Shown piece by piece: positions 3-57,097 of a stretch of 64,000 nt of DNA. The DNA lies in NCBI GenBank assembly GCA_024408235.1, contig JAKSVF010000001.1, positions 29,417-93,416 on the forward strand. The letters run 5' to 3'. The DNA is from Bacilli bacterium (lineage in GTDB: Bacteria; Bacillota_I; Bacilli_A; RFN20; CAG-826). The position numbers and the translations under genes were made by a program. How positions within the stretch are numbered: position 1 is the first letter of the stretch; each line of letters starts with the position of its first letter. Below the pieces are notes generated by a model, which made no database searches, was not told where the DNA came from, and worked only from the letters and a program-made list of their open reading frames with translations.

Positions 3-3000
3 ATAGCCGACTCTGGAATGGATGCATTTAAGAACGCTAACAAGGATTACATCTACACAGCCAACAAAGATGAACTGAGATATGAAAATAGACAGCTCAT
101 CAGAATTCTTGAAGCTGCAGTCGATCCTGTCTATGGAGTCATCGCTAATGATGGTGCCGTTAAGGAAATCAAGATCTCAGACGTTGACGCTTACTACTTA
201 GTGAACCCTCTCCTCAAGTCATTGGCAGAATCTCACGTCTTTAACTCCTTGTCCGATAAGCAGATTGCGGAAGGTGTTAGTATGACCGCGTTGGAGAAAG
301 AATTCTCATCGCTTTTAGGTTCGGCTTCCCTCTTTGAAAGCAAGACGAATGCAGACAAAGCGGTTTTAAGCGTGACAAAAGGCGTTACATCGTTTGAACA
401 TCGTGCAAATCTTTGGGACGATGAGATTGATCAGGTCACCAATGTCCTTACATCAATCCAGGATTTAGACATCGATCTCAATAATTTCTCGTTCGACAGC
501 ATCTTCCCAGATGGCAAGGATGAAGCGAAGAGACAAAAGCTCGAGAATATGCTTTTGAGCATCAATAACTCTCAGATTCTCCACTCAGTTCTCCCATACC
601 AAATCAATAAATCTGTTGATACCTTGGCGGATAGCCTTGGTTCATCATTCACACTCACGAATGTTAACGCCTACTACACCGGATATGATTCTGATGGTTT
701 AGCAAATAGATATGATGATGCGGAAATCGTTAATTTCTCATATATCATCCAAGATGGCTTAACAATGGGCGAACTTGATATGTCTTCGATGCATGGCGAC
801 CAGATCGATACTGTCATGTCATTGTTGAAGAGAATCGCTTCGAGCAACGTTTTCAACACAATCAAGGAGCCTGCATCAACCTATGAGATGACCGCTTTCG
901 AAAGCTTGTATTATCAGGCTATCGAACAAGCTAATGTTTTCGATGACATCAATCAGTTAAAAGCGTCTATTTTCCACGTAACAAACGGAGCTAGAACTGA
1001 CTTATCCGTCCTTGGTTCGCGCGCAGCTTCTTGGGAAAATGAAATCGATACCCTTCACCAGGTCTTCCTCGACTTTGATGGCCTCGGATTCCAAATTGAT
1101 AATTTCGATTACAATTCTCTCGATGAGTCCAGGGATTCAGAGCTTGCTACATTACTTGATGATGTGGACAAATCAATCACAATGCATTCAATGCTTCCTT
1201 TGAAGATCGAGGCTGCAATTGATGAAGTCGATGATTCGCTAGGAGAAGGTGTTTCTCTTGGAGTTGCTAACACAAGATACAAAGGCACATCTATTTTATC
1301 TTATGGTGATGGTCTTACTGTTGAGGTTCCAAATGCTTATGACGATTACGATGAATGTGAACACATCGCCCGAATCGTAAATAGAGGCTTGCATATGGGC
1401 TCGGTGGATTTAAGCGCCGGATCAACGGATACCAAATTCATCGACTTACTTATTGAGATGGGTCACTCTAACGTATTCAACACCTTGCCTGATAATAATT
1501 ACGGAATTGACCTCACTTCATTAGAAACTGTTTTCTCAACATCGGTTAAAAAATCGGGTATCTATTCTGAGAAGGAAGCTCAGGCATCCGCTTTGCTCGT
1601 TACCAACAAATCCTCGGACCTCGCTTTGAGAGGTGATTTATGGGAAGAGGAACTCGCCTATGTCCGTGCAACAATCAATGCGTTATCGGAAATCGATTTA
1701 GATATCGAGCACTTTGATTTATCAGCTCTTTTCACAGGCGGTCCAGAAGATGAAACGACTAGACAGAAAATGGTCACCCTCCTTAATTCATTAAGCGATT
1801 CTAAGACACTTCATTCTGTTGCCCCTATTAAACTTAGAACAACAATTGACTCCTACAAGAGTTCTTTGGCCGCTGGTCAGGTTTCTTTTGACAACGCAAA
1901 CTACGATTACAACGGCAAAGTGATATATGAGTTCGATGATACCTCATTAGGAAATGTCACATTACCAAACGCCTACGGATACGACGAAAACGAGGCTTTG
2001 TCATACATCATCATGGAGTCTTCAAATCTTCCAGATCAGAATCTTGCTGATTTAACATCCATCGACAGAACTCCATATATATCCCTATTAAAGAGACTTT
2101 CAGCAAGCCACGTTTTCAATACGCTTGAAGAAGGACTTACGCATTCTCCAAATCTCCTAACAGCATTCGAAAACACATATGTAAGCATTCTTGATGAAGG
2201 CAACGTTTATGAGCATTATGCAGAGCAAGAGCTTGAAGTTGATAGAATTGCCACATTTGAAGCAACTAAGGGCGTCTCCAATTTCGACAATATAAAAGCG
2301 ATTTGGGATGATGAACTCGATTTAGTCGAACAGATCATCACCGATTATCAGACATGCGGATTTACAATGACATCCATCAACATTGCAAACCTCTTCCCGG
2401 CATCTGCAACAGAAGAAGAAGCGGAACTCAGCAGAATGAACTTACAGGAATTGATGGATGACGTAAACTCGTCACTCACCCTCCATTCAACCCTCCATCG
2501 CACGGTCAATGAAGCTATTGATAAAGTCAGTGACAAGATGGGTGGAGATTCGATGGACAACGCAAATGTCTACTTCACCGGTTACTCGGTACCTGATAAA
2601 AAGCTTGGTAACTACTACACCGACGAGGAAGTTGAGAAACTCTCCTATATTGTTAAAGGCTGCATGAGAATGCCTGATGTCGACAAGAGCGACATTGGCT
2701 CAATCGATGCATCTAAAGTTACGGATTTGCTTGCTCATTTAGCAACAAGCCAAGTATTCAACTCACTTAAGGATGGAGAGCCATTTACCGCATTTGATAA
2801 CGCCTATGCCACCCTCATGACAACGGATGGCTTAAACGATGTCTATTACCATGCTCCAAACCCGGTTGATAAAGACGCTATTTATTCAACTTCAGCCGAT
2901 AAGGCTAAGGTTGTTGCAAGGTCAACATGGACACCTCTTACTTTATCCATTGATATCGATACATATGATGTTTCAAATATCAACGGTAACACTGGTTCAT

Positions 3001-5114
3001 TGCAGTACGTCTTAGAGTACTTTGTTGATCCGTCTAACTCAGACGTCATGGATTCACTTAATGGCGAATTCTCGTCTTTAACTGGAGATAAGATCTATGA
3101 TTCACTTACTAGGTTGAACTCGTGCGAATTAACAAAGGACATGGTGCCTAACATCATCGATAAGACAATTAACGATCCATCTTTCTCCCTAGGCTCAATC
3201 AACATCAAGAGAGCAAATCCGTTCTATTGTTACAATGGATTATGGGGTAATAAGTATGATGACGATGAAATCGAATGCATCGCAAACATCATAACCGCTA
3301 ATAACAACATGAAGGATAGTGGTGGACATAGCATCTTCGCTAACCTCGGCTCGGCTACTATTACTCATTCAACGGTTGTCGAGTTAAAGAACTTGATGGA
3401 TGCAATGAACGAAAGCCAGGTATTCCATTTGTCAGGTGCTAGATCAGGCGCTGAATTCTTTGATTCAACAGTCGCTGCTTGGAAAGAGCCATTGACCGCA
3501 TTTGAACAGATCTTAGGAACTATCTATGAAGAGTCCAACCTCGCTTCTCTAGCATATAACTCAACTAGAGATGCATATGCTTCTTGGAGCGAGAAACTCT
3601 CTGCTCGAATGGGACACTTCCGCGATGGAAACCTCGAATCTCTCCACGGCGCAGTCGCCAATAGATATGAAATCGAAGTCGAAGCAATCTGCAACTTGAT
3701 TGATGTTGCTATCGACCTTGACCTATTGTCATCAGGTTTGAGCCTCGGTTCATTTGAACTCGGTTCATTCTCACCTGAACAAGTCAGATTCTTATCTAAC
3801 GCTCTCAACATCGTTGACATGGTTTCAGACGCTCTTCCAAATAAGATAGATTCATTCGTTAAGACAACAGGCGTTGATAAATACAATGCCGTTGATGTAA
3901 TGGGCGAAAAACTCGATATTGCCAATTACTTCCTCTCTCAAGAACAGATGAGGGATGGCGCTATCGATTCTATCTACACCTTCTCAAATTCAATTTACGA
4001 ACCGGCTGAATATGATACTTTAGGCAATAAGACCAAGGATGCTAAGTACACTACATTCACAGGTCCTGATGCAGTGAACATGTCTGAGTGGATTCTTGGC
4101 GAAGGAAAGTTCTCCTCAATATTGAAATTCATTGATGAGCCAAACGGTTTCTATGCGTCATCGCATTACACGGCTACCCCATTAGACGGTTCAAGCCTTG
4201 CCGCCATCAATGCTGCAACAGACACCTATGACTTCACAGCGAGAGATGCATTCTTCTATAACATCTCCTCATTCAGCGTTGCTGGAGAAGTTCTTAACCT
4301 CGGTTCATACCTCGGAGCGGGTGACTCGTTGCTACTTGATCTTAAGGGCTCTAGAGACGCGTTTGACCACGTCGAGAAAACTGACGCATCTTACTTAAGC
4401 GAAGAAATGTCCATCCACTCAACAATGATCGATCTTGGAACAATATACGTTGCCCTTAATGCATCGTCATCACTTGGAACTCTTCCAACTCACTTAGCTG
4501 AGTTTGAAATGTTAGCAAGCGACCTCGCATATTCAAGCGTTGAATCATTGTTCACATACTTCGGCACAAATAGCTCATCTCTATCCGGAAGATATGCTTC
4601 AGGACTTTTAGAAGAACCTGTTCATAAAGCTAACTCCTACATCAACGGCAACTCTTACTTCACCGCTCTGTTCGACGCTACAGGCCTCCCATACCCATCA
4701 AGCTATATGGATGGCGCCTCGGTTAGAACCCGTTCGTCCTACGATGAAGGATCTACATTAAGCACATACTCCATCTACTCAGATAACGGCTCGGATTTAA
4801 GAAGCGAAGATGTAAAGGATGCCTACATGAGCATGCTTAGAATCGTGAAGGAAATCGGCATTGGCGCATTAACGTCAAGCCACACAATTGATACCGTTTC
4901 CCTCAACTCTGCGTTCTCAACAATCGACTCCCTCGTATCAAATCCACGAGTCAGCGCATTAACAAAGTTATTCTATCTCTCATCCACATATGACTATCTC
5001 CTCAACAGAGGCGCATTCCACGGCGAAGTCCTCCCATTCCTGAGTGAGATTGATGTGCCAAATCCGTTCGATTCGGCCTTCACTTATAGTGGATTATCCT
5101 CATTCATCGCTTAA
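3..5114 (+). CDS. giant acidic modular repeat protein, C-terminal >=1698 aa (probably 5'-truncated by the window edge)
   Basis: The frame is open from nt 3 with no stop before the first ATG at 18, and no SD precedes that ATG. The stop is TAA at 5112-5114. The protein is D/E/S/T-rich and K/R-poor. It contains six divergent tandem modules (see repeat feature). I see no LPXTG, TM helix or known catalytic motif in the visible part. Confidence 0.85.
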   Translation: MADSGMDAFKNANKDYIYTANKDELRYENRQLIRILEAAVDPVYGVIANDGAVKEIKISDVDAYYLVNPLLKSLAESHVFNSLSDKQIAEGVSMTALEKEFSSLLGSASLFESKTNADKAVLSVTKGVTSFEHRANLWDDEIDQVTNVLTSIQDLDIDLNNFSFDSIFPDGKDEAKRQKLENMLLSINNSQILHSVLPYQINKSVDTLADSLGSSFTLTNVNAYYTGYDSDGLANRYDDAEIVNFSYIIQDGLTMGELDMSSMHGDQIDTVMSLLKRIASSNVFNTIKEPASTYEMTAFESLYYQAIEQANVFDDINQLKASIFHVTNGARTDLSVLGSRAASWENEIDTLHQVFLDFDGLGFQIDNFDYNSLDESRDSELATLLDDVDKSITMHSMLPLKIEAAIDEVDDSLGEGVSLGVANTRYKGTSILSYGDGLTVEVPNAYDDYDECEHIARIVNRGLHMGSVDLSAGSTDTKFIDLLIEMGHSNVFNTLPDNNYGIDLTSLETVFSTSVKKSGIYSEKEAQASALLVTNKSSDLALRGDLWEEELAYVRATINALSEIDLDIEHFDLSALFTGGPEDETTRQKMVTLLNSLSDSKTLHSVAPIKLRTTIDSYKSSLAAGQVSFDNANYDYNGKVIYEFDDTSLGNVTLPNAYGYDENEALSYIIMESSNLPDQNLADLTSIDRTPYISLLKRLSASHVFNTLEEGLTHSPNLLTAFENTYVSILDEGNVYEHYAEQELEVDRIATFEATKGVSNFDNIKAIWDDELDLVEQIITDYQTCGFTMTSINIANLFPASATEEEAELSRMNLQELMDDVNSSLTLHSTLHRTVNEAIDKVSDKMGGDSMDNANVYFTGYSVPDKKLGNYYTDEEVEKLSYIVKGCMRMPDVDKSDIGSIDASKVTDLLAHLATSQVFNSLKDGEPFTAFDNAYATLMTTDGLNDVYYHAPNPVDKDAIYSTSADKAKVVARSTWTPLTLSIDIDTYDVSNINGNTGSLQYVLEYFVDPSNSDVMDSLNGEFSSLTGDKIYDSLTRLNSCELTKDMVPNIIDKTINDPSFSLGSINIKRANPFYCYNGLWGNKYDDDEIECIANIITANNNMKDSGGHSIFANLGSATITHSTVVELKNLMDAMNESQVFHLSGARSGAEFFDSTVAAWKEPLTAFEQILGTIYEESNLASLAYNSTRDAYASWSEKLSARMGHFRDGNLESLHGAVANRYEIEVEAICNLIDVAIDLDLLSSGLSLGSFELGSFSPEQVRFLSNALNIVDMVSDALPNKIDSFVKTTGVDKYNAVDVMGEKLDIANYFLSQEQMRDGAIDSIYTFSNSIYEPAEYDTLGNKTKDAKYTTFTGPDAVNMSEWILGEGKFSSILKFIDEPNGFYASSHYTATPLDGSSLAAINAATDTYDFTARDAFFYNISSFSVAGEVLNLGSYLGAGDSLLLDLKGSRDAFDHVEKTDASYLSEEMSIHSTMIDLGTIYVALNASSSLGTLPTHLAEFEMLASDLAYSSVESLFTYFGTNSSSLSGRYASGLLEEPVHKANSYINGNSYFTALFDATGLPYPSSYMDGASVRTRSSYDEGSTLSTYSIYSDNGSDLRSEDVKDAYMSMLRIVKEIGIGALTSSHTIDTVSLNSAFSTIDSLVSNPRVSALTKLFYLSSTYDYLLNRGAFHGEVLPFLSEIDVPNPFDSAFTYSGLSSFIA
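18..3872 (+). repeat. six divergent tandem protein-level modules (~204-221 aa, ~610-665 nt period) inside the giant ORF
   Basis: The anchor motif LL+xxAxS[HNQ]VF[NH] recurs at nt 231, 843, 1467, 2106, 2748 and 3411 (aa 72, 276, 484, 697, 911, 1132). Each module also carries TAFE/TAFD, W[DE][DEN]E[IL]D, a DxxNF/HF stretch, [IT][LM]HSxxP...ID...SLG and N[AV]xxY..G..YDDxE. The repeats are visible at protein level only. The nucleotide copies are diverged. Confidence 0.8.
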
Positions 5115-17650: not shown

Positions 17651-18139
17651 ATGCATTGTACGATTATGATGCAGTGGTATAAGAAACTTACGTCAAATAA
17701 GAAATGCCTACTTCTGTTAGGCGTTTTTGATGCGTTTGTTTTCGTTTGCTTAATCCCATTCGCCTTTTTCTCAATGGATAGCGGATATTGGCTTGGAACC
17801 CTTATGCTCGGATGGCTTTTAGGTTCAGTTGCTCAGATCATCGCTTATGTCACAATCGTTTTTACTAGCAAGATGCTTACAACGCCTAATGGCACGACCA
17901 CAACCGGTACTCTTATGGGTGCTGGTGGTTTCTTCATTAGGTACTTTTTGTATGCGGCAGTTCTTACTTTATCGGCCATCTGTACGTTTAAACCGGAATG
18001 GCTTTTAGGCTTTGATAAATTTAATGTATTTACATGCGGCGCAGCGCTCGTTGTGCTCTCATTCTTTGTCATGATTTTTAAAGTCATTGAAATGAGGGGA
18101 GAAGCTGACCCGGTTAAGAAACAGGAGGAGTCGAACTAA
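17651..18139 (+). CDS. small integral membrane protein, AtpI-like position upstream of atpB (start uncertain)
   Basis: This hydrophobic ORF has about 4 predicted TM segments and sits immediately 5' of atpB with a 1-nt overlap. The ATG at 17651 abuts the candidate -10 hexamer, so the true start may be 17666/17669 (MMQWYKK). Confidence 0.55.
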   Translation: MHCTIMMQWYKKLTSNKKCLLLLGVFDAFVFVCLIPFAFFSMDSGYWLGTLMLGWLLGSVAQIIAYVTIVFTSKMLTTPNGTTTTGTLMGAGGFFIRYFLYAAVLTLSAICTFKPEWLLGFDKFNVFTCGAALVVLSFFVMIFKVIEMRGEADPVKKQEESN

Positions 18140-18951
18140 TGTTGGCAGAAACAGTTGACTTTAACTATAGACTCGCCCATTTCTGGGATTGGGATTTAGA
18201 CGGATCTTTATTCTCGTCTTTATTCGTAATGCTTATTCTGATTGTTCTTGCGGTCATTATTTTCATCAAAGTGAAGATCGGTATGAAGAAGAAGTCGTAC
18301 TTAGAGAAGCCAAAAGGACTTTTGCACCTTGTTGAAATTTATTTCAATTACATTGATAACTTAACCAAAGACAATATGGGCGAACATAACGAAGGCTGGG
18401 GCGGATATCTCTTTGGCCTATTCGCATATTTGTTCCTTGCGTTTATGTGGGGAGCAACGGGATTCCCATCTGTCATCGATTGGTTAGCTGCTCCTTTATG
18501 TTTATCGGTCGTGATGTTTATCATCATTCAGGTGACTGCGCTCAAATATCAGAAGTTCTCGTACTTCCATAGATATATTGAACCTTTTGCGATCTTCCTT
18601 CCTATAAACCTTGTTACGATGTGGGCTCCAATCATCTCAACCACAATGCGTTTGTTCGGTAACTCAATTTCCGGCTTTGTTTTGATCGGTATCGTTCAAT
18701 GGGCGTTAGGCAATGCCGCAAACATGGTTTATGGCGTTTTATTCAGCCCATCAATAGAGTTAACAAGCTTCGTGCTCGCACCGGTGGTGTCGGGCGTGTT
18801 GCAGTTATATTTCACCTTATTCTCCGGCGCTATTCAGACATTGGTCTTCGGATCGCTGAATGCAGTCTGGATTTCGGCTGAAATACCTGAACCGGTATCT
18901 CCAGCTTTAAATGATCAGATGAGACCTGAGGTCGCAACTGATGTTGAATAA
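18139..18951 (+). CDS. atpB: F0F1 ATP synthase subunit a
   Basis: A polytopic membrane protein with the conserved stator Arg context TTMRLFGNSISG. An AGGAGG SD precedes the start. The operon position fits. Confidence 0.9.
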   Translation: MLAETVDFNYRLAHFWDWDLDGSLFSSLFVMLILIVLAVIIFIKVKIGMKKKSYLEKPKGLLHLVEIYFNYIDNLTKDNMGEHNEGWGGYLFGLFAYLFLAFMWGATGFPSVIDWLAAPLCLSVVMFIIIQVTALKYQKFSYFHRYIEPFAIFLPINLVTMWAPIISTTMRLFGNSISGFVLIGIVQWALGNAANMVYGVLFSPSIELTSFVLAPVVSGVLQLYFTLFSGAIQTLVFGSLNAVWISAEIPEPVSPALNDQMRPEVATDVE

Positions 18952-18978
18952 GAAAAACTAATCCCAGGAGGTAAAAAT

Positions 18979-19233
18979 ATGGCAAGTGTGGAATTAGGTT
19001 TAGTAGCCATCGGCGCAGGTATCGCCGTTGGTATGGGTGCCTTATCATCAATTGGTGAAGGCCTCATCTGTGCTAAGGCACTCGAGGGTATGGCAAGAAA
19101 CCCTGAAATGCAGAAGAAGCTTCAGTCAACAATGATCTTGGCTGTTGCATTAGACGAATCAACAGCTATTTATGCTCTTATCGTCGCTATCCTTCTCATC
19201 TTCGTCTTCCCAGGATTGGCTGCAGGACTTTAA
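18979..19233 (+). CDS. atpE: F0F1 ATP synthase subunit c
   Basis: An 84-aa hairpin proteolipid with the loop ARNPE and the ion-binding helix ALDESTAIY. An AGGAGG SD precedes the start. Confidence 0.95.
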   Translation: MASVELGLVAIGAGIAVGMGALSSIGEGLICAKALEGMARNPEMQKKLQSTMILAVALDESTAIYALIVAILLIFVFPGLAAGL

Positions 19234-19239
19234 TCGACT

Positions 19240-19794
19240 ATGGAAGCTATCGTTAGATTAACAACAGTTCTAGCGGATGCTCCTTTCAGTTCTGAAGATT
19301 TCATTAAGAAGCTCGTCCCTAATGGCTGGAGCTTACTCATCAATCTTCTTGCGCTGTTGGTTACTTTTACTGTGCTTTATTTCTTGGCTTATAAGCCAAT
19401 AAAGAAGTACTTGAAGGCAAGACAGGACGCAATCAAAGCGAACATTGATGAAGCAGAGGAAGCCAAACGAGTTGCGCAATCAACAATCATCAATCGTGAC
19501 GCTATCATTCAAGAAGCTAATGAACAGGCTGTAGCCATCATTAGCAAAGCTAAAGATGATGGTGAAAAGAGACGTCAGGAGATTGTTAAGGCTGCTGAAG
19601 ATGAGGCAGCAAAGAAACTTGAACAGGCTAGAGAGTCTATCAAGCAGGAAGAGATTGCCTCACGTGAAGCCATCAAGAAGGAGATCGTTGATGTCGCCAT
19701 GGATATTTCCCAGGCTGTTTTGCCACGTGAAATTTCCGATGAGGACAACAAGCGCCTTTTGGATGAGCTTACAAATCAATTAGAAGAGAAATAA
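19240..19794 (+). CDS. atpF: F0F1 ATP synthase subunit b
   Basis: A single N-terminal TM segment is followed by a long charged coiled-coil (AEE/KRR-rich). The operon position fits. Confidence 0.85.
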   Translation: MEAIVRLTTVLADAPFSSEDFIKKLVPNGWSLLINLLALLVTFTVLYFLAYKPIKKYLKARQDAIKANIDEAEEAKRVAQSTIINRDAIIQEANEQAVAIISKAKDDGEKRRQEIVKAAEDEAAKKLEQARESIKQEEIASREAIKKEIVDVAMDISQAVLPREISDEDNKRLLDELTNQLEEK

Positions 19795-19797
19795 TTT

Positions 19798-20346
19798 ATG
19801 AATAAGGACCGCTACGCAAACTACGCACAAGCATTGTTATCCTTTGCAAAAGAGGAGAATGATGTTCAGGGCTATAAGAATGATGTCCTCTATGTTTCAA
19901 ATGTTCTCGACGAGAACAAGGAACTAGTGGAGTTTTTGTCATCCATGAGCGTATCGGAAACCGGCATAAACTCAGTTATTGATAGCGTCTTCGGAAATCT
20001 GAAGAGTAAGCATCTTTGCTCGTTCTTAAAACTCCTTTCCGCAAAGCATATATCTCGTCATTATGACAAGATATTCTCGGCATTCATCTCGCTAAGCAAT
20101 GCCGAACTAGGCGTTAAGGAAGGAATCATCTATTCAGTGGATGAGATGTCAAGCGATGACATCAAGAAAATTGAAGAATCGCTATCAAAGAGATTGGAAT
20201 CAAAAGTCTATCTCGAAAACCGTATCGATCACGATTTGATCGGCGGATACAAAATCAGCATCGATGGAAAGGTATATGACTCTTCCGTCGTTTCAAAACT
20301 CAACCGTTTAAAAGCGGTACTCTATAAAACAGAAGGAGGCAAATAA
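19798..20346 (+). CDS. atpH: F0F1 ATP synthase subunit delta (OSCP)
   Basis: A 182-aa protein between atpF and atpA. The C-terminal pattern is LIGG.KI.IDG.VYD.S....L. Confidence 0.85.
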
Positions 20347-21875
20347 TGAGCAACAGAACCTCTGATATCTCAGCTCTCATCAAGGAGCAAATCAAAAAGT
20401 ATTCAGGCGAAGTAGTCGAGGAAAATGCGGTTGGTACCGTTATTTCCGTAGGTGACGGAATCGCAACTGTTTACGGTTTAAAGGGCGCTATGCTCTCTGA
20501 ATTACTCGAATTCCCTAATGACATTTATGGTATGGTCATGAATCTTAACGTCGATAACGTTGGCGTTGTTCTTCTTGGCTCAGACCGTTTAATTAAGGAA
20601 GGCGACTTGGTCAAAGAAACCGGTAAGGTTGTCGAAGTTCCTGTCGGTGATGGAATGCTCGGAAGAGTTATTTCACCTTTAGGCCAGCCTTTAGATAATT
20701 TAGGCCCAATCGAATACTCAAAAACTAGACCAATTGAAAGAATCGCTCCAGGTGTTATGACCCGTAAATCGGTCAATACTCCTATGGAAACAGGAATCAA
20801 GGCAATTGACTCCATGATCCCTATTGGACGTGGACAGCGTGAGCTCATCATCGGTGACCGTCAGACTGGAAAAACCTCCATTGCAATCGACACGATCATC
20901 AACCAGAAGGGCAAAAATGTTAAATGCGTCTATGTCGCAATCGGACAGAAGAATTCTTCAGTTGCTTCCTTGACTAATAAATTAAAAGAAAAAGGCTGTT
21001 TAGATTACTGCGTTATCGTTAACGCTTCGGCATCTGAACCAGCACCTCAGCAGTATATCGCTCCATTCGCAGGCATGGCTATTGCGGAAGAATGGATGGA
21101 GCAGGGACAGGATGTCTTAATCGTATTTGACGATTTATCAAAACACGCTGTCGCTTATCGTACTTTGTCGCTTCTTTTAAGAAGAGCGCCAGGACGTGAG
21201 GCTTATCCAGGTGACATCTTCTATCTCCATTCAAGACTCTTGGAGAGAGCTTGCAAACTTAATGCTAAATATGGTGGTGGTTCAATCACCGCTCTCCCTA
21301 TCATCGAGACTCAGGCGGGCGACATCTCTGCCTATATTCCAACTAACGTCATTTCCATCACTGATGGCCAAATATTCTTAGTTACAGACTTCTTTGCATC
21401 AGGTCAAAGACCAGCGGTCGATTCTGGTTTCTCCGTTTCGCGTGTTGGCTCTGCAGCCCAGTACAAATGCATGAAACAAGTATCCTCTTCCTTAAAGATT
21501 GAGCTTGCAAACTATAGAGAAAATCTCTCATTCAGCCAGTTTGGCAGCGATCTTGATGCGGAGACAAAGAGAATTCTTAATCACGGTGCTATTGTCACCG
21601 AATCACTCAAGCAGAAGAACAATTCTCCTCTTGCTTTCTATGAAGAGGTCATTGATTTATTTGCAGTTAAAAACAGATATTTAGACGACCTTGATCTTAA
21701 GGCAGTCAACCCATTCCTCACCGCTTTAAGAGAAGAAATCATGACTTCTCATAACGACATCGTTGAGGAATTAAAAGAGAAGAAGATTTTCTCTAAAGAA
21801 TTAGAAGCTAAACTCTCAAACGCCATTGCATCATTCAAGAATGATAAGTGGCCTTCGATCTCAACTACAAAATAA
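20346..21875 (+). CDS. atpA: F0F1 ATP synthase subunit alpha
   Basis: Shows the Walker A GDRQTGKT plus DDLSKHA and ITDGQIFL. Confidence 0.97.
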
Positions 21876-21887
21876 TAAGGATTTCTA

Positions 21888-24165
<2,278 letters not shown>

Positions 24166-24166
<1 letters not shown>

Positions 24167-24471
24167 TGAGTGAGAAGATAGTTCTTACAATATTATCTGC
24201 CAAGGGCCTCGTTTTCGAAGGCGAAGTGGATGAGTGTTATGTTCCTACTAACACTGGTCCCGTCGGCATATTAAGGGGTCACACTCCGTATATTGCATCG
24301 CTTAAAAACGTTGGCATTTTGAAATTCACATCTCGCAGTGTGAAATCTTTCTACGTTATCAAACAAGGCGCTGTCGAGATGAAAGGTGAAAGGCTTTTAA
24401 TAATCACCACCGAAGCAATTTGCGCTAAATCTTTAGCAGATGCTGAAAAAATTATTGAAGATTTTAAATAA
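24166..24471 (+). CDS. atpC: F0F1 ATP synthase subunit epsilon, short form (101 aa)
   Basis: The N-terminal beta-sandwich pattern is present (GEVDECYVPTNTGPVGILRGHTPYIASL). Only about 17 aa follow the sandwich. The start overlaps the atpD stop. Confidence 0.85.
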
Positions 24472-37973: not shown

Positions 37974-39104
37974 ATGAGCACCAAATTGGCAGCTATGATT
38001 CTCGCAGGCGGAAAGGGCACAAGATTGTTGGCTTTAACGAAGAAAGTCGCGAAGCCAGCTGTTTCTTATGGAGGAAAGTATCGCATTATCGACTTCCCAC
38101 TTTCAAACTGCGCAAACACAGGAATCACCTGTGTATCTGTTTTGACCCAATATGAGTCAAGCGAACTTAACACCTATGTCGGAAACGGTGAGAAGTGGGG
38201 ATTGAATGGAGTTAGATCAATCACCTCTGTTTTAACACCTAAACAGACAGACGAAGGCAGCAACTGGTATAGAGGCACCGCAGACGCTATCTATCAGAAC
38301 ATCGACTGGCTTGATGGAGTCAACCCTGAGTATGTTTTAATCCTTTCGGGTGACCACATCTATTCATGCACATATAACGGCATGCTTAAGAAACACATTG
38401 AGAATAAGGCGGACTGCACGATTGCAGTTTATGAGGTTCCATGGGCAGAAGCTCCACGTTTCGGAATCCTTGTAACAGACGACAAAGATAATATCGTCGA
38501 CTTCCAAGAGAAGCCAAAAAACCCAGTAAGCAACCTTGCTTCTATGGGTATCTATATCTTCACATACAAGACATTAAGAGCAGCTCTTTTAGCTGATGCA
38601 GCAGACCCAAATTCAGAACACGACTTCGGCAAGAACATCATCCCAACAATGATGGCACAGAAGAAAAAGATGGTTGCTTACACTTATTCAGGATACTGGA
38701 AAGATGTCGGTACAGTCTCTTCGTTGCATGAGGCAAATATGGACTTACTTTTATCCGGAGACCCAAACATCAACCTTTATAAGGTCCAGGGTGATAACAA
38801 GATTTATTCCGAAGACAATCACTCGCTTCCACAGTACATTGGACCTGATGCGATCGTTAAGGATTCGCTCGTTAACCAAGGCGCATCAATCTTAGGCAAC
38901 ATCGATCACTGTGTTGTTTCAAGCGATGCAACAGTTGAAGCGGGTGCGAGCTGCAAGAACTGCGTCATTATGAATGGCGCCGTCATTAAATCAGGCGTCA
39001 ACGCAGCGAATGCGATCATCGGCCAGAACACCCTTGTCGATGAAGATGTAAACGGCGAGCCAGGAAACATCGAACTTGTCGTTAATGGAAAGGCAGGTAA
39101 ATAA
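37974..39104 (+). CDS. glgC: glucose-1-phosphate adenylyltransferase
   Basis: Shows LAGGKGTRL, FGGKYRIIDF-like YGGKYRIIDFPLSN, WYRGTADA, LSGDHIY and FGI..VD. The C-terminal region resembles a left-handed beta-helix. Confidence 0.93.
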   Translation: MSTKLAAMILAGGKGTRLLALTKKVAKPAVSYGGKYRIIDFPLSNCANTGITCVSVLTQYESSELNTYVGNGEKWGLNGVRSITSVLTPKQTDEGSNWYRGTADAIYQNIDWLDGVNPEYVLILSGDHIYSCTYNGMLKKHIENKADCTIAVYEVPWAEAPRFGILVTDDKDNIVDFQEKPKNPVSNLASMGIYIFTYKTLRAALLADAADPNSEHDFGKNIIPTMMAQKKKMVAYTYSGYWKDVGTVSSLHEANMDLLLSGDPNINLYKVQGDNKIYSEDNHSLPQYIGPDAIVKDSLVNQGASILGNIDHCVVSSDATVEAGASCKNCVIMNGAVIKSGVNAANAIIGQNTLVDEDVNGEPGNIELVVNGKAGK

Positions 39105-39105
39105 C

Positions 39106-40224
39106 ATGAAAGGCGTATTAGGTATTCTCGATTGCCATAACTCATGCTCACTTGGCGAATTGACTATGGATCGTCCATTGGCATCCGTAAGCTTCCTCGG
39201 AAGATACGCGATTTGCGATTTTCCTCTTTCCAATTTCTGCAATTCAGGAATTGATAACGTCGGAATCTTAGTTAAAGAGCACCAGAGATCCATCTTGAAA
39301 CACCTTGGCAACTCCATGTCATGGGTCAATAACACAAAGATGGGCCACATCAACGTTTTCTACAATGAAAAAGGACAGGTTAACCCTTCATACAACACTG
39401 ACTTAGCTAACTTGAAGGAAAACGATTGGGTCATTATTACTTCAGGCTGTAAATACATCGTTATTCAGTCCGCAGACGTAATCACAAACACCGACCTCAC
39501 ACCATTCATCGAAGAACATATTGAAAGAGGTGAGAAGATCACCACTCTCTATCATGAAATCGATGATGCAGACAAACAGTGGTTTGGCGGTAACACATAC
39601 GAGATTGATAGCGATGGTTGCCTTATCTCAACAAAGCCAAACGATGGCTCTGAGAAAAAGGCAAAAGTCGCGCTCGGCACTTGGATCATTAATAGAGATG
39701 CGTTACAGACAATCTTTGATGAATCCGCAAAAGTATCAGCTTCATGGGGATTAAAGGAAATGATGGGATACCTTGCTGAGAATGGCATCTTCAACATCCA
39801 CTGCGTTAAGCACGAAGGATATGTTAGAAGAATGGATTCCCTCCAGCATTATGTCGACTACTCATTCGAACTTCTAAATAGAGATGTCGCAAAACAGCTC
39901 TTCGTTCCTGAAAGACCAATTTACACAACTACACACGATACGGCTCCAGCCCTCTATGGAGTTGATTCTAAAGTTGCTAACTCATTCGTTGCAAACGGAT
40001 GCGTTGTTGAAGGAGAAGTTGAGAATTCAATCATCTGCCGTGATGTTAAAGTCGGCAAAGGAGCAAAGGTCAGCAACTCCATCCTCTTATCCAACGTTTG
40101 GGTCTTAGACGGCGCTAACGTTGATAATGTCATCATCGATAAATATTCAACAGTCCTTGAGAAACACACCATCGCAGGAGACAAGGCTAACCTTATCTAC
40201 ATCAGACAAGGAGCCAAGATCTAA
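39106..40224 (+). CDS. glgD: glycogen biosynthesis protein GlgD (non-catalytic ADP-glucose pyrophosphorylase subunit)
   Basis: This is a GlgC paralog that lacks the GGxGxRL motif (it has GILDCHNS...LGELT). It retains FLGRYAICDFPLSN. Its position between glgC and glgA matches the Firmicutes arrangement. Confidence 0.8.
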   Translation: MKGVLGILDCHNSCSLGELTMDRPLASVSFLGRYAICDFPLSNFCNSGIDNVGILVKEHQRSILKHLGNSMSWVNNTKMGHINVFYNEKGQVNPSYNTDLANLKENDWVIITSGCKYIVIQSADVITNTDLTPFIEEHIERGEKITTLYHEIDDADKQWFGGNTYEIDSDGCLISTKPNDGSEKKAKVALGTWIINRDALQTIFDESAKVSASWGLKEMMGYLAENGIFNIHCVKHEGYVRRMDSLQHYVDYSFELLNRDVAKQLFVPERPIYTTTHDTAPALYGVDSKVANSFVANGCVVEGEVENSIICRDVKVGKGAKVSNSILLSNVWVLDGANVDNVIIDKYSTVLEKHTIAGDKANLIYIRQGAKI

Positions 40225-41663
40225 TGAAGATAGCTATGTTCTCATCCGAGGCCAACCCGCTCGCAAAGTCAGGTGGTCTCGCAGACGTTGCTTACTCTCT
40301 TTCAAAAGAACTTGTGAAAATGGGTCACGACGTAATCCTCGTGATGCCACTTTACAAGGCGATGTGGAAGAAAGAAAAGCAGTACAAGTACAAGAAAGTA
40401 GATGAATTTGAAGTTTCTCTCTCATGGAGAAAAAACACCGCAACAATCTACACAACAACAATTGACGGCATCAAATATTACCTCGTATCGAATGGTCCAT
40501 ATTTCGAGAGAGATAACCTTTATAGCTATCCAGATGACACTGAAAGATTTGCTTTCTATCAAATCGCTTCAGTCATGCTTTTGAATAGGCTTAAATACCA
40601 GGCAGACATCATTCATGTCCACGATCACCAGGCAAGCTTCATTCCTGTCCTCATCAAGGAAAAGGAAGGAGATAACCCGTTGTTCTCAAAGACAAAATTT
40701 GTCTTAACCATTCATAACCCAGCCTTCAGAGGTGAGTTTGACAAGTTCTATCTCGGCGACTTCTATGGTCTCCCAGATTCAATCTATGACAGCGGCGCTG
40801 TTAGATTCAACAACATGGTCTCAACCCTCAAGGCCGCTATGATTTATTGCGACAAGATCACAACCGTTTCTCCAACTCATAGAAACGAGCTTCTCGATCC
40901 AAATTCAGAATTCCATCTTAACGGTGTTCTTGACTGGAGATACGATGATTTTGTCGGAATCGTCAATGGCATCGATATTAAGGAATGGGATTCTAGAAAA
41001 GATCCTAAGATTGAATTCAATTACGGAATCACAAACCTTGAAGAAGGCAAACACGCAAACCAGGCTGCGCTTCTCAAATCCATGAATCTAAAATTCTACG
41101 GCGGACCAGTCTATGGACTTGTTTCGCGTTTATCATGGCAGAAGGGCATCGGCCTCGTCGTTGAGTCAATGAGAAAGGCTCTTAGACAAGGCGCTAACCT
41201 CGTTGTTCTAGGCTCTGGCGAATACGAGCTTGAACAGCAAATGGAGGAATTGAGGAGAGAATTCCCTGACACATGTGGCATTTACATCGGCTATTCAGAC
41301 GATCTTGCTCACAAGATTTATGCTGGCTGCGATTTCTTCCTCATGCCATCTCTCTTTGAACCTTGTGGAATCTCTCAGATGGTATCTCAGAGATATGGTA
41401 CATTACCTATCGTAAGATACACCGGAGGACTTGCCGACACCGTTGAAGGATATGTTGGGGACAACATAAATTCATCTAATGGAATCGGTTTCAATAACTA
41501 TGATGCAATGGGAATGGATTATGCTATTGGCATGAGTAGAGCACTTTATGCTGACCAGAAATCATTCTACAAGGTCGCAAGAAACGCTATGAGACTTGAC
41601 CGTTCATGGGCACAGTCTGCAAAGAACTACGAAGACTTATACATCGCAGCTCTTACAAAATAA
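40224..41663 (+). CDS. glgA: glycogen synthase (ADP-glucose type, GT5)
   Basis: Shows the N-terminal [15 protein letters not shown], plus [12 protein letters not shown] and [12 protein letters not shown]. Confidence 0.93.
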
Positions 41664-52482: not shown

Positions 52483-53484
52483 ATGGAGAATTTAAAAGAA
52501 CGTGTAACGATTTACCAGGTTGCTCAAGCTGCAGGAGTATCTTTAGCAACAGTATCTCGCGTTATTAACAAGCAGGGCAACGTAACTGAAGCTACGAGAA
52601 CGAAGGTTGAGGAGACAATCAAGCGTTTAGGATATAAGCCTTCAGGCTTAGCTCAGGCTCTTGCTACAAACAGAACAACAAACATCGGTATCGTCATTCC
52701 TAGCGCTAACTATGTTTATATCTCAAGCATGTTGAGCGGTGTCTCTGAGGTCGCTAAGGAAAAAGGGTTTGTTCTTACATTATTTACAACAGGTCATTCA
52801 AGAGAAGATGCAATTGCGATGATTGAAAAGGTCATCGTCTCACACGTAGACGGAGCAATTATCTTTGATGATGAACTTGATGAGGCAGATATCGAGAAGA
52901 TTAACTCCTATTCCGTCCCAACAATCGTTATCAATAAGAAAGTTGTTGGCGAAAGAACAGGATGCGTTAACTTCTCATATACGAACGCGCTCGCGAAGCT
53001 TGTTCAGTCATACTACGAAAACGGTGGCGACACTGAGATGACTTTCATCCATCTTCATAACTGTGGTAGATTGTTGAGCCACTGCGAAAGAAGATTCATT
53101 GCAGCTCACCAGGAAATCGGAAAGCCATATCACATCATGAATGTCGATGACTCTTACACAAGAACGTACCGTGATTTCACCAATTATTTCCAGAATCATA
53201 AAAAAGGCTATTACATCGCTTACCGCGACTCAATTGCAGCAGCCGTTGCAAATGCAGCAACCGATAGTGGACTAAGAATTCCAGAAGACATTCAGGTCGT
53301 TTCACTTGTCGGAACAAAATATGCGCATATCTTGAGACCTACATTAACATCAATCGATTTGGATTGGCAGGAAGTTGGCAAGAGATCGATGTACATGTTA
53401 ATTGATTTGATCAACAGAAACCTTGAAGAAAAGTCTTACAAGTTTGATGCAAATCTCGTCATCAGAAACTCAACAAAACACTAA
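52483..53484 (+). CDS. LacI/GalR-family transcriptional regulator
   Basis: The N-terminal HTH is TIYQVAQAAGVSLATVSRVIN. A periplasmic-binding-protein-like sugar domain follows. Confidence 0.92.
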   Translation: MENLKERVTIYQVAQAAGVSLATVSRVINKQGNVTEATRTKVEETIKRLGYKPSGLAQALATNRTTNIGIVIPSANYVYISSMLSGVSEVAKEKGFVLTLFTTGHSREDAIAMIEKVIVSHVDGAIIFDDELDEADIEKINSYSVPTIVINKKVVGERTGCVNFSYTNALAKLVQSYYENGGDTEMTFIHLHNCGRLLSHCERRFIAAHQEIGKPYHIMNVDDSYTRTYRDFTNYFQNHKKGYYIAYRDSIAAAVANAATDSGLRIPEDIQVVSLVGTKYAHILRPTLTSIDLDWQEVGKRSMYMLIDLINRNLEEKSYKFDANLVIRNSTKH

Positions 53485-53612: not shown

Positions 53613-55133
53613 ATGGCTGAGCAAACAAAAACAGCGAAGACATCCGGAATCGGGATGAAAGACAAGCTTGGATACGCTTTCGGAGATGTTGGCTCCTTGA
53701 TGGTATTCGGACTTGTTAACACCTTCCTTCAAGTCTTCTACACCGAAACACTCGGTATAACACCAATCTTGGTCATGATTATCATGATCATCGCTCGTGT
53801 ATGGGACGCGATCAACGACCCTCTATGGGGAAGAATCGTCGACAAGGCGCCATGCAAGAGACCTGGAACAAGATATAAGAGATGGCTTGTTTATTTAGCC
53901 CTCCCTCTTGCTTTATCTTCCATCATCATGTTCTTGAATGTGAGAGGCATCTTTGGAGATAACCCTGCACTCACAGTAACATACGCAACCATTTCTTACA
54001 TTCTCTTCGGCATGCTATATACCGGAACAAATATTCCTTATGGCTCAATGGCTTCAGTCATTACAACAGATGATAAGGAAAGAAACGCATTATCAGTCTT
54101 CCGTTCGGTCGGTTCAACTCTCGGCGGATTTGGCCCTATGGCTTTAAGCTTTGTCTCATATGATAAGGTCCAGAAAGTCGTCGAAGGAGTGGCACAGTTC
54201 GATACTGATGGAAATCCAGTCATGGTATCTCAGTTAAATCCAACAAAACTCATCATTGGCGTTGCAATCTTAGCAGTGCTCTGCGTCGTATTCTCAATTC
54301 TCTGCGCAAAGTTCTCAACGGAGCGTGTTGTTACAGAACCATCTAGAGGAGAAACCAAGAAGAAAGGTGAAACCGCTAGAGTTCTCAAGAATCTTCTCAA
54401 GACCCGCTCATTTGTTGTCATCTCAATTGTCGGCATGCTTTTCTTAGCCGCTCAGATGTTCCAGACAACATACAACTCATACGTATTCATGAAATTCTTC
54501 GGCAGTGGTGGTCTTGCTGCTGTTACTCAGGTATGCCAGTACCTTCCAGTAGCAGTCGTCATGTTCCTTGCCGGGAAACTCGTCAAGAAATTTGGCCGTA
54601 AAGAAATCTGCGCTATCGGACTCTTATTTGTCGCTATCTCATTTGGTGTCTTAGCGATCATCCCAACTACAGTCGTTTCAAGAACAATCTTGATGTATCT
54701 CTTCTTCGTGTTCTCACTCTTAGGAGGTATTGGTAACTCCTTTATCTTCTTAATGATATGGGCTCTTGCTAATGACGCGATTGATGATTATTTCATCAAG
54801 TACAGAAGCCATGATGAAGGTACAGCATATTCAATCTTCTCTTTCATGAGAAAACTTGGCCAGACAATCGCAGCTATCATTGTCAACATCTCTCTTATCG
54901 CAATCGGATACGGAGCTGATGGAACAACCAACTTTGCTCCATCTGAAGCTCAGGCTACATCGATGTACTATCAGTCAATCATCATCCCTGCGGTTTTATC
55001 CCTTGCAATGTTCCTCTTACTCATGTTCCTATACCCTCTTGGAAAACAGGCTGTCTTAGACATGCAGGAGAAGAAGAACGCTATTTATGCGGAAGAAGCT
55101 TCAAATGTCGAAAATGAAGCCGTTAGCGAATAA
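53613..55133 (+). CDS. glycoside-pentoside-hexuronide (GPH):cation symporter family transporter
   Basis: About 12 TM segments. The GPH signature is GYAFGDVG...ARVWDAINDPLWGRIVD. The length is 506 aa. Confidence 0.88.
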   Translation: MAEQTKTAKTSGIGMKDKLGYAFGDVGSLMVFGLVNTFLQVFYTETLGITPILVMIIMIIARVWDAINDPLWGRIVDKAPCKRPGTRYKRWLVYLALPLALSSIIMFLNVRGIFGDNPALTVTYATISYILFGMLYTGTNIPYGSMASVITTDDKERNALSVFRSVGSTLGGFGPMALSFVSYDKVQKVVEGVAQFDTDGNPVMVSQLNPTKLIIGVAILAVLCVVFSILCAKFSTERVVTEPSRGETKKKGETARVLKNLLKTRSFVVISIVGMLFLAAQMFQTTYNSYVFMKFFGSGGLAAVTQVCQYLPVAVVMFLAGKLVKKFGRKEICAIGLLFVAISFGVLAIIPTTVVSRTILMYLFFVFSLLGGIGNSFIFLMIWALANDAIDDYFIKYRSHDEGTAYSIFSFMRKLGQTIAAIIVNISLIAIGYGADGTTNFAPSEAQATSMYYQSIIIPAVLSLAMFLLLMFLYPLGKQAVLDMQEKKNAIYAEEASNVENEAVSE

Positions 55134-55135
55134 AA

Positions 55136-57097
55136 ATGAATAAGCAGCAGCTTGACTCACTTTTCATTTCCTCAATCGAAGATGGGGGAATGCGCATTTC
55201 TCTAGCCCAGGGTAAAGCTAAATACAAAATGAGTCGTGGTTCATTCACGACAAAAGACCATATATTTGATAAGCACAACCTCAAGTTCGTTAATAAAGAG
55301 GGGGACAACTTCCTCTTTAGCGACGGCAAGGTTAACTGTGTCATGTCCTTAGAAAAAGGAGAGAACATTAAACTCCGTTTTAAGGCTGACCCAAAATACA
55401 ATCGCTTCATTTTGAAGATCCCTGCATTTGAGAATGAACACATATATGGATGCGGTGAGCAGTATACACACCTTGATCTCAAGGGGAATAAAGTTAAAAT
55501 CTGGGTTTCAGAACACCAACAAGTAATGAAGATCGCCAAGAAGTTCTTAAGAGAGAAACTCTTTGGTGTAAATCCTGATTACAAAGCCCCATACAAGGCT
55601 CACCAAACCTATTATTCTTCACCAGGCTTTATGTCCAGTGAAAACTATTTTGTCTACTGCCATGAAGACGCTTATGGACAAATCGATTTTGAAAAGAACG
55701 AGACTCTAATTAAATTCCGTCAAGTTCCTCAATCGATATCCATACTTACAGGGGATAATCCAATCGATCTTGTTAAGAAAATTACAAAGCTCGTTAATAT
55801 CCAGCCTAAGCTTCCTGACTTTGTGGGTGAAGGCGCAATAATTGCCACCCAAGGCGGAAGCGATGTTATGCTTGAGAAATACGAGGCCTTAAAAGCTAAA
55901 GGCGGAAAAGTATCTGCAATCTGGTGTCAGGACTGGTCTGGACAGATAGTTACAGAATTTGGCTCTCAGGTCTATTGGAACTGGGAAGTTGATAACAATC
56001 TCTATCATGATTTGAAGGAGATCATTGTCCGCTTAAATAATGAGGGAGTTAAATTCCTTGGGTACATCAATACATTCCTAAAAGAAGACACCCCTTTATA
56101 TAAATATGCGGTAGAGCACGATTATATCGTCAAGAAAAAAGACGGTACACCTTACCTCATTCAGTCTACAACATTTAACGCTGGAATAGTTGATCTCACT
56201 TTCCCTGAAGCATATGAATGGTATAAGGGAATCATCAAAACAAACATGATAGGACTTGGCTTATCTGGATGGATGGCTGACTTTGGTGAGTATCTTCCAA
56301 CAGACTCAGTTGTCCATGGGGGCGATCCTGAAAAGCTTCATAACAAATGGCCAACGCTTTGGGCTAAATGCAACTATGACGCCATTAAAGAGTGCGACAT
56401 GGAGGGCAAGATATTTATCTTCTCTCGCGCTGCATATGGTCATACAGTTCAGTATACGAACTCAATGTGGAATGGTGATCAGCACGTTGATTACTCCGAT
56501 GAATATGGGCTTGGTTCAGTCATCCCTGCGACATTATCAATGGCATGCAGCGGAGTTGGCGTGAACCACAGTGATATCGGCGGATACACGACGGTACTTC
56601 ACATGAAGAGAGACGCAGAATTATTTAGAAGATGGTCTGAGATGAATATCTTTACGCCAGTCTTCCGTTGTCACGAAGGAAATAGGCCAAAGGTCAACGT
56701 TCAGTTCGACAGCGAAGAAGTGGTTGATGAATTTATAAAGAACAGCGATATATTTGCCGCCTTAAAACCATATAGAGATGACGTTCTTAAGGAATATTAT
56801 GAGGATGGCATCCCTTGCAATAGACCTCTCTTCTTCCATTTTGATGAAGATGAGTGTTATACGAATCAAAGAGAATTCATGTTTGGAAGCGAACTGGTCG
56901 TCGCTCCTGTCATGCGTAAAAACGTCACCAAGTTGAAAGTCTATTTGCCTAAAGGCGAGTGGATTGGTCTATTTGATGGCAAGACCTACGAAAGTGGTCA
57001 CATTGAAGTCGAGGCTCCTTTAGGAACGATTCCTGCCTTCTATTTAAAGGGAAGTGTTCACGAGAATCTCTTTAGAGATCTTATAAAGGAAAAATAA
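55136..57097 (+). CDS. GH31 alpha-glycosidase of the YihQ (sulfoquinovosidase) clade
   Basis: Blocks shared with E. coli YihQ as recalled are HIYGCGEQ, IWxQDWSG...FG...WNW, GWMADFGEYLPTD (nucleophile Asp382), WAKCNY, MWNGDQ (acid/base Asp448), HSDIGGYTT and TPVFRCHEGNRP. Confidence 0.85.
   Translation: MNKQQLDSLFISSIEDGGMRISLAQGKAKYKMSRGSFTTKDHIFDKHNLKFVNKEGDNFLFSDGKVNCVMSLEKGENIKLRFKADPKYNRFILKIPAFENEHIYGCGEQYTHLDLKGNKVKIWVSEHQQVMKIAKKFLREKLFGVNPDYKAPYKAHQTYYSSPGFMSSENYFVYCHEDAYGQIDFEKNETLIKFRQVPQSISILTGDNPIDLVKKITKLVNIQPKLPDFVGEGAIIATQGGSDVMLEKYEALKAKGGKVSAIWCQDWSGQIVTEFGSQVYWNWEVDNNLYHDLKEIIVRLNNEGVKFLGYINTFLKEDTPLYKYAVEHDYIVKKKDGTPYLIQSTTFNAGIVDLTFPEAYEWYKGIIKTNMIGLGLSGWMADFGEYLPTDSVVHGGDPEKLHNKWPTLWAKCNYDAIKECDMEGKIFIFSRAAYGHTVQYTNSMWNGDQHVDYSDEYGLGSVIPATLSMACSGVGVNHSDIGGYTTVLHMKRDAELFRRWSEMNIFTPVFRCHEGNRPKVNVQFDSEEVVDEFIKNSDIFAALKPYRDDVLKEYYEDGIPCNRPLFFHFDEDECYTNQREFMFGSELVVAPVMRKNVTKLKVYLPKGEWIGLFDGKTYESGHIEVEAPLGTIPAFYLKGSVHENLFRDLIKEK

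Follow-up and report, generated by a model that had tools for sequence, protein, structure and literature searches.

A predicted Na+-type two-carboxylate c-subunit, with an invariant aspartate beside the ion-binding glutamate, in the F1Fo ATPase of an uncultured gut Bacilli lineage

The window, by which we mean the whole 64-kb stretch of DNA that was analysed, has a GC content of 41.8% and carries an intact atp operon at positions 17651-24471 (Table 1). Its genes stand in the canonical F-type order, (I-like)-a-c-b-delta-alpha-gamma-beta-epsilon, which is identical in related loci; all eight F1Fo subunit genes are present and their P-loops are intact. The hydrophobic ORF that takes the place of atpI matched no Pfam or NCBIfam family above cut-off; its one hit, CbiM-like, is sub-threshold. 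The window holds one atpE, of ordinary length, whose 84-aa translation is MASVELGLVAIGAGIAVGMGALSSIGEGLICAKALEGMARNPEMQKKLQSTMILAVALDESTAIYALIVAILLIFVFPGLAAGL. This protein matches Pfam PF00137 (ATP-synt_C; 9.2e-18, 64.7 bits, cut-off 24) and NCBIfam TIGR01260 (ATP_synt_c; 56 bits, cut-off 43.95), and phmmer matched it to 49 c-subunit sequences from the PDB. The polar loop A-R40-N-P-E corresponds to A-R45-Q-P-E of Na+ c-rings; both the loop and Glu60 are invariant across the clade. The NCBIfam models for alternate F1Fo enzymes stay far under their cut-offs (TIGR03322, 44.5 versus 130.85; TIGR03306, 41.7 versus 302.1). Membership in the N-type ATPases is ruled out by these model scores and by the canonical F-type gene order, which is unlike that of N-type operons; the latter start with beta-epsilon, include atpQ/atpR and accompany a normal F-type operon. 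We identify the gene as the atpE of an uncultured gut/rumen member of the Bacilli, belonging to a canonical F1Fo ATPase with eight subunits.

Table 1. Genes, codons and other features of the window discussed in the text.
Feature	Position	Strand	Basis
162-aa hydrophobic membrane ORF in atpI position	17651..18139	+	homologue upstream of atpB in most related loci
atpB, subunit a	18139..18951	+	Pfam PF00119; alignments to PS3 and chloroplast a
Ribosome-binding site GGAGG, 7 nt 5' of the atpE ATG	18967..18971	+	read from sequence
atpE, F-type ATP synthase c-subunit, 84 aa	18979..19233	+	ORF list; Pfam PF00137; gap-free alignment to 3ZK1 and 1YCE
Glu27 codon, helix-1 carboxylate (= F. nucleatum Glu32, I. 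tartaricus Gln32)	19057..19059	+	
Asp59-Glu60-Ser61-Thr62 codons (= Ala64-Glu65-Ser66-Thr67)	19153..19164	+	
Tyr65 codon (= Tyr70, H-bond donor to ion-binding Glu)	19171..19173	+	
atpF, subunit b	19240..19794	+	Pfam PF00430 5e-23
atpH, subunit delta	19798..20346	+	Pfam PF00213 6e-36
atpA, subunit alpha	20346..21875	+	Pfam PF00006, PF00306, PF02874
atpG, subunit gamma	21888..22736	+	Pfam PF00231 1e-75
atpD, subunit beta	22751..24166	+	Pfam PF00006, PF02874
atpC, subunit epsilon, 101 aa	24166..24471	+	Pfam PF02823 only
Glycogen synthesis cluster (glgC-like, glgD-like, starch synthase)	37974-41663		
LacI regulator near symporter	52483-53484		
GPH:cation symporter, MelB-like	53613..55133	+	TIGR00792 235 bits, above cut-off; alignment to MelB 4M64
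GH31 glycosidase adjoining symporter	55136-57097		
Alpha-amylase	61685-63349		

The initial annotation of this gene had read an ion site from residues E27, E60, S61, T62 and Y65, with 13 residues between E27 and the loop arginine R40. These positions are correct: the codons of R40 and E60 start at 19096 and 19156, respectively, the others as given in Table 1, and R40 is E27+13. Residues 3-80 align without gaps to residues 8-85 of the Fusobacterium nucleatum c-subunit at a constant offset of +5, and the same is found for Ilyobacter tartaricus (phmmer, PDB). The resulting equivalences are E27=E/Q32, L58=V63, D59=A64, E60=E65, S61=S66, T62=T67 and Y65=Y70. The earlier match to the E65-S66-T67...Y70 spacing is borne out by the constant offset, and E27 is not shifted out of the ion site against either 3ZK1 or 1YCE, a comparison that had been set beforehand as the refuting test. 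BLASTP gives identities of 45% to F. nucleatum and 42% to I. tartaricus, both with 0 gaps.

In crystal structures of the F. nucleatum ring, the Na+ ligands are Glu32, the backbone oxygen of Val63, Glu65, Ser66 and one water, which is held by the Ala64 oxygen and Thr67 O-gamma; Tyr70 forms a hydrogen bond to Glu65 and, together with Ser66, locks it, while Glu32 is constitutively protonated and is not transported (PMC3692424). In the window protein, Na+-type residues fill all five named ligand positions and each side-chain ligand is present. Glu27 occupies the Gln/Glu32 position of the I. tartaricus-type Na+ site, which is completed by Glu60-Ser61, Thr62 and Tyr65; the two-carboxylate subtype is distinguished by having Glu instead of Gln at position 32 in combination with the complete Ser/Thr/Tyr set. 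Hence the E32/E65 motif of F. nucleatum, to which the site had first been assigned, is recovered in the gap-free alignment as Glu27 plus E60-S61-T62...Y65. Whereas the F. nucleatum subtype has exactly two carboxylates per site, a third one, Asp59, adjoins Glu60 here.

The best four PDB matches come from three experimentally Na+-coupled F-type rings, namely Acetobacterium woodii (c1 at 2.3e-16 and c2/3 at 8e-13), F. nucleatum and I. tartaricus. The fifth, the c-subunit of pea chloroplasts, which we take to be H+-coupled, has Ala-Leu in place of the Ser-Thr of the window protein. Register, ligands and best structural matches all being those of Na+ rings, the first reading of this enzyme as Na+-coupled is supported at the level of sequence.

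Compared with the F. nucleatum c11 ring (3ZK1/3ZK2), the window protein has Glu and Glu-Ser-Thr...Tyr at identical positions and is likewise encoded in an F-type operon. It differs in having Asp59 for Ala64 and Leu58 for Val63, the latter being a backbone ligand only; furthermore, its partner epsilon is truncated, and its host is an uncultured gut bacterium of the Bacilli instead of a fusobacterium. The c11 ring of I. tartaricus and Propionigenium modestum (1YCE, 2WGM) likewise matches at Glu65-Ser66-Thr67-Tyr70 and at the Val63 backbone position, but it has Gln32 where Glu27 is found here; otherwise the differences are those noted for F. nucleatum. The A. woodii F/V-hybrid ring (4BEM), which gives the best PDB score and is also Na+-coupled and from a Firmicute, departs from the window protein in its helix-1 Gln, its helix-2 Glu-Thr-Thr and its extra double-hairpin c1. 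A further difference lies in the GxGxGxGxG motif of F. nucleatum and I. tartaricus, which in helix 1 of the window protein is degenerate, G20-A-L-S-S-I-G26-E-G28 (19036-19062), with Leu22 and Ser24 in place of two glycines and Ser23 in place of Pro28. Glycine-motif variants can alter ring stoichiometry, and the ring may thus differ from c11.

Conservation was followed in two samples: (I) a homologue set of 120 database sequences of 59-99% identity, aligned in 122 rows with the query and the I. tartaricus reference; (II) a scan of one genome per GTDB species, which yielded 578 confirmed relatives, the best 80 of which were examined as loci. None of the 120 homologues departs from E27, E60 or Y65, and these residues and the operon order are kept in every one of the best 80 of the 578 relatives, in which position 61 is likewise Ser or Thr. 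The conservation of the motif is above chance. Across the 122 aligned rows, position 61 is Ser in 110 and Thr in 12, while position 62 is Thr in 75 and Cys in 42. About a third of the clade carries Cys at the Thr67 position, so the lineage has no strict need of a Thr67-type ligand. For the clade members with Cys62, ion specificity is harder to predict than for the window protein.

The best 80 of the 578 loci are all from metagenome-assembled genomes of gut, rumen or faecal origin, under labels that include 'Bacilli bacterium', Candidatus Enteromonas/Alloenteromonas and 'uncultured Mollicutes/Erysipelotrichaceae'. The nearest relative, UBA1744, has 81% DNA identity over the operon; since this is the closest value, the window represents a different species of this uncultured lineage. 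As a side observation, five loci (L039, L045, L053, L055 and L064) carry the Bacilli-type atp operon with L-D-E-S-T under the GenBank labels Escherichia coli, Alistipes communis, Bacteroides uniformis, Faecalibacterium prausnitzii and Parasutterella. These 'cleanbin' assemblies appear to be taxonomically mislabelled.

Asp59, which lies directly N-terminal to the ion-binding Glu60, had been quoted in the initial annotation without comment. On the alignments it is the only residue that sets the site of the window protein apart from the published motif. All 120 homologues have it, as do 69 of the best 80 of the 578 relatives. Elsewhere it is rare: among 467 hairpins from 146 representatives at 50% identity around the family, only three (0.6%) have Asp at this position, the commonest residues being A, T, S, P, I and V. 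These counts derive from a HMMER search in which the c-subunit was run against 1.84 billion representatives; its highest matches are mostly multi-hairpin fused or polyprotein c-subunits, and it served only for the position-59 statistics. Relatives that lack Asp59 retain E27 and E60, their motifs being L-V-E-T-T (Erysipelotrichaceae MAGs), L-S-E-T-A (Solobacterium) and I-T-E-S-T (Oscillospiraceae/Gemmiger). No third carboxylate in c-rings was reported in the literature searched, and the L-D-E-S motif is absent from the c-subunits in the supplementary alignments of Mulkidjanian et al. (2008).

As for the role of Asp59, its backbone carbonyl is the counterpart of the Ala64 carbonyl of F. nucleatum, which holds the water bound to Na+. 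The face of helix 2 that contacts subunit a is marked by the E. coli a-c cross-links at c55, 62, 65, 69, 72 and 73 and by the oligomycin-binding residues of yeast. Given these contact residues, a helical wheel places the Asp59 side chain about 180 degrees from that face, so the residue would point to the inner helices and the buried water side. The helical variability moment, calculated to find the face on which Asp59 lies, is only 0.18, the whole helix being conserved, and so favours no face. Asp59 probably contributes a protonated carboxyl in the second shell, which would make the site more polar. Two other roles were considered. Compensation for Thr62 to Cys is not supported, as Cys, Ala and Val62 also occur in relatives without Asp59; pairing with Ser23 is rejected because Ser23 also occurs with Val59 in relatives, and the two residues are about one and a half turns apart by register.

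The partner of the ring at the a/c interface is also modified. Arg171 of the stator and Asn175 (R-L-F-G-N), Gln233 and Tyr224 are invariant in subunit a. In contrast to E. coli aE219/aH245 and Polytomella H154/E194, a covarying and largely conserved ionizable pair at the entry channel (PMC5129741), the window protein has Phe180 at the aE219 position (R171+9, codon 18676-18678) and Thr226 at the aH245 position (Q233-7, codon 18814-18816). Neither position is ionizable in 58 of 64 subunits a from Asp59-bearing operons, the window included; in these 58, N or Q is found at position 222 and S, G, A, T or N at position 226. The six basal Asp59 loci (L040-L043, L051 and L066), in which the c motif is D-E-T, keep His222 and Asp226 (Y-F-D-L-F-S-G), and Asp226 is kept in nine of nine relatives without Asp59. 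The ion path would thus be atypical, since other predicted-Na+ relatives have Asp where the window subunit a has no ionizable residue at the aE219/aH245 positions.

From the distribution of these residues, Asp59 of the c-subunit was apparently gained first and the subunit-a acid lost later. The possibility that Asp59 replaced the lost Asp226 was tried and set aside: the tree shows the two changes one after the other, with both residues present in six loci, and by the helical wheel Asp59 should face away from subunit a. Because the tree holds few events, no functional link between Asp59 and subunit a can be claimed.

We consider it likely, on balance, that the c-ring carries Na+ sites of the F. 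nucleatum two-carboxylate type and that the enzyme is Na+-coupled at gut Na+ concentrations, mostly hydrolysing ATP to expel Na+. In such a site, Na+ would be bound by Glu60, the charged carboxylate for the transported ion, and by Glu27, presumably protonated, of one subunit; the other ligands, namely Ser61 O-gamma, the backbone carbonyl of Leu58 and a water kept in place by Thr62 and the carbonyl of Asp59, would belong to the neighbouring subunit. Glu60 would be locked by Tyr65, and where subunit a meets the ring its Arg171 would strip off the ion. At the Na+ concentrations of the gut such an enzyme would be Na+-coupled; with no respiratory chain, it would mostly hydrolyse ATP and expel Na+, building a sodium-motive force for Na+ symporters. 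What the sequence shows directly is the set of residues, its register against solved Na+ rings, its conservation and the intactness of the operon; from these we infer the Na+ binding, the protonation states and the direction of operation.

The direction of operation was addressed through epsilon and the gene content of the window. Epsilon comprises the N-terminal beta-sandwich but lacks the helical domain at the C-terminus: it covers positions 3-90 of the 130 in the TIGR01216 profile, and its alignments to PDB sequences end at about residue 94. Its shortness is not due to a frameshift, since the next ORF begins at 24489, 18 nt further on. The epsilon subunits of the nearest relatives have 102-106 aa and those of the clade 87-145 aa; therefore, the C-terminal regulatory helices were lost in several sublineages. 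In the Bacillus and E. coli enzymes, it is these helices that inhibit hydrolysis.

When essentially all ORFs of at least 120 aa in the 64-kb window were scanned against Pfam, no respiratory gene turned up, nor any for Rnf, Nqr, a decarboxylase or a Na+/H+ antiporter. For a 1698-aa ORF at 18-5114, no Pfam domain was found at E<=0.001. The glycogen synthesis cluster and the alpha-amylase fit a carbohydrate-fermenting lifestyle, and related gut lineages are predicted to be small-genome fermenters that form acetate and H2 (PMC7301438). Beside a LacI regulator and a GH31 glycosidase lies a MelB-like symporter, in which D65, N68, D69 and T137 correspond to MelB D55, N58, D59 and T121 (stretch W64-D65-A-I-N68-D69-P70), with Asn140 in place of MelB Asp124. 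In Klebsiella MelB, Asn58 is the residue that confers Na+ coupling. D55 and D59 of MelB are proposed Na+ ligands (PMC5677108). The symporter is a possible candidate consumer of the sodium-motive force.

The search for other Na+-cycle genes that had been suggested together with the first reading, carried out here within the window, thus turned up one MelB-like symporter but neither Rnf nor antiporters. The proposal that the enzyme acts as a Na+-extruding ATPase in a fermenter gains circumstantial support: the short epsilon, the lack of respiratory and Na+-pump genes in the 64 kb, the symporter and the fermenting relatives are all compatible with an ATP-driven Na+ pump.

The same evidence bears on a second possibility, namely a Na+-coupled enzyme whose main task is ATP synthesis, powered by a sodium-motive force that a decarboxylase or Rnf generates, as in F. 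nucleatum and Propionigenium. The two-carboxylate enzyme that has been studied experimentally is a synthase (PMC3692424), F1Fo is reversible, and the window is 64 kb, with most of the genome outside it. Nevertheless, no Na+-pumping decarboxylase, Rnf or Nqr was found in that window, the domain that restrains hydrolysis is missing from epsilon, and the related lineages are the predicted fermenters mentioned above (PMC7301438). We regard operation mainly as a synthase as unlikely.

The two remaining questions of specificity concern the proton. All c-rings are intrinsically H+-selective, Na+ coupling being the outcome of polar groups and a huge excess of Na+, and additional polar groups lining the site shift the preference from H+ towards Na+ (review PMC7594442). 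The enzyme might translocate both Na+ and H+ physiologically, for which the two-glutamate A1Ao of Methanosarcina acetivorans, cited by Schulz et al. (PMC3692424), provides a precedent. Asp59 and the variation between Thr and Cys at position 62 could shift selectivity in either direction, and fermenters acidify the surroundings. However, F. nucleatum, with the same five residues, is Na+-specific without H+ pumping (PMC3692424), and no feature of the sequence specifically predicts promiscuity; such dual coupling seems quite improbable.

The enzyme might also be H+-coupled in spite of its motif, with the proton on Glu60, with Glu27 and Asp59 both protonated, and with a role as a proton-extruding ATPase in pH homeostasis, as in streptococci. 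Two-carboxylate sites with a second, helix-1 carboxylate facing the ion site are indeed found in the H+ enzymes of Streptococcus pneumoniae and Mycobacterium tuberculosis (PMC3692424). They are also found in the c17 ring of the Burkholderia pseudomallei N-ATPase, whose class is predicted to be predominantly Na+-selective and whose ring site (E30/E61/T62/M63/Y66) is described as proton-binding (PMC5376962). The failure of such predictions, as for this N-ATPase ring, calls for caution with sequence-based Na+ assignments in general. Within the lineage, the Cys found at the Thr67 position in the aligned set points the same way, and an additional buried acid beside Glu60 should raise the pKa of Glu60. 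Against this, each of the H+ examples lacks Ser66, Thr67 or both (T62-M63 in B. pseudomallei), whereas the window protein has the full set. Furthermore, Na+ exceeds H+ in gut and rumen by about five to six orders of magnitude, so that rings with this motif are Na+-coupled in practice (PMC3692424, PMC7594442), and the loss of both candidate proton-buffer residues from subunit a is hard to square with a dedicated proton path. We give H+ coupling little credence.

Finally, we think it a long shot that Asp59, Glu27 and Glu60 form a new three-carboxylate site that alters the ions bound per c-subunit, be it by direct Asp-Na+ coordination in place of the water, by a markedly higher Na+ affinity or by a second ion co-bound or co-transported, and that this site co-evolved with a remodelled subunit-a half-channel.

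The preferred reading, a Na+-coupled ATPase that mostly hydrolyses ATP, is in keeping with earlier predictions of Na+ F-ATPases for the related Acholeplasma laidlawii and Eubacterium dolichum (Mulkidjanian et al. 2008, PMC2359735) and with the listing of the two-carboxylate Na+ motif in several Firmicutes (Schulz et al. 2013, PMC3692424). Our literature searches for an RF39 Na+-ATPase and for an Acholeplasma Na+ pump returned nothing relevant.

Taken together, our results support, at the level of sequence, the reading of this protein as an F-type c-subunit of the two-carboxylate Na+ kind, from a lineage of gut Bacilli that is large and uncultured. Its predicted motif is a known one and not new in kind, the two-carboxylate Na+ motif in a Firmicute c-subunit having been textbook-level since 2013. 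What is unusual is the combination of an invariant Asp59, a degenerate helix-1 glycine motif, a truncated epsilon and a subunit a without ionizable residues at two half-channel positions. Interest would rise if Asp59 were an ion ligand: a three-carboxylate site would be undescribed for any rotor ring, and it would come with an acid-less a channel in most of a lineage that numbers at least several dozen, and probably hundreds, of gut species.

If the preferred reading is true, the membrane energetics of a very large, uncultured group of Bacilli from gut and rumen is based on Na+ and not on H+; the scale can be gauged from the Asp59 motif, which occurs in at least 69 of the best 80 of the 578 confirmed relatives. 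This would bear on cultivation, through a Na+ requirement and through sensitivity to ionophores such as the monensin used in ruminant feed, as well as on the modelling of transport and on the evolutionary spread of Na+ bioenergetics among the Mollicutes-related Firmicutes. The invariant Asp59 and the acid-less subunit a would then represent a natural experiment on how ion selectivity and half-channels can be rebuilt.
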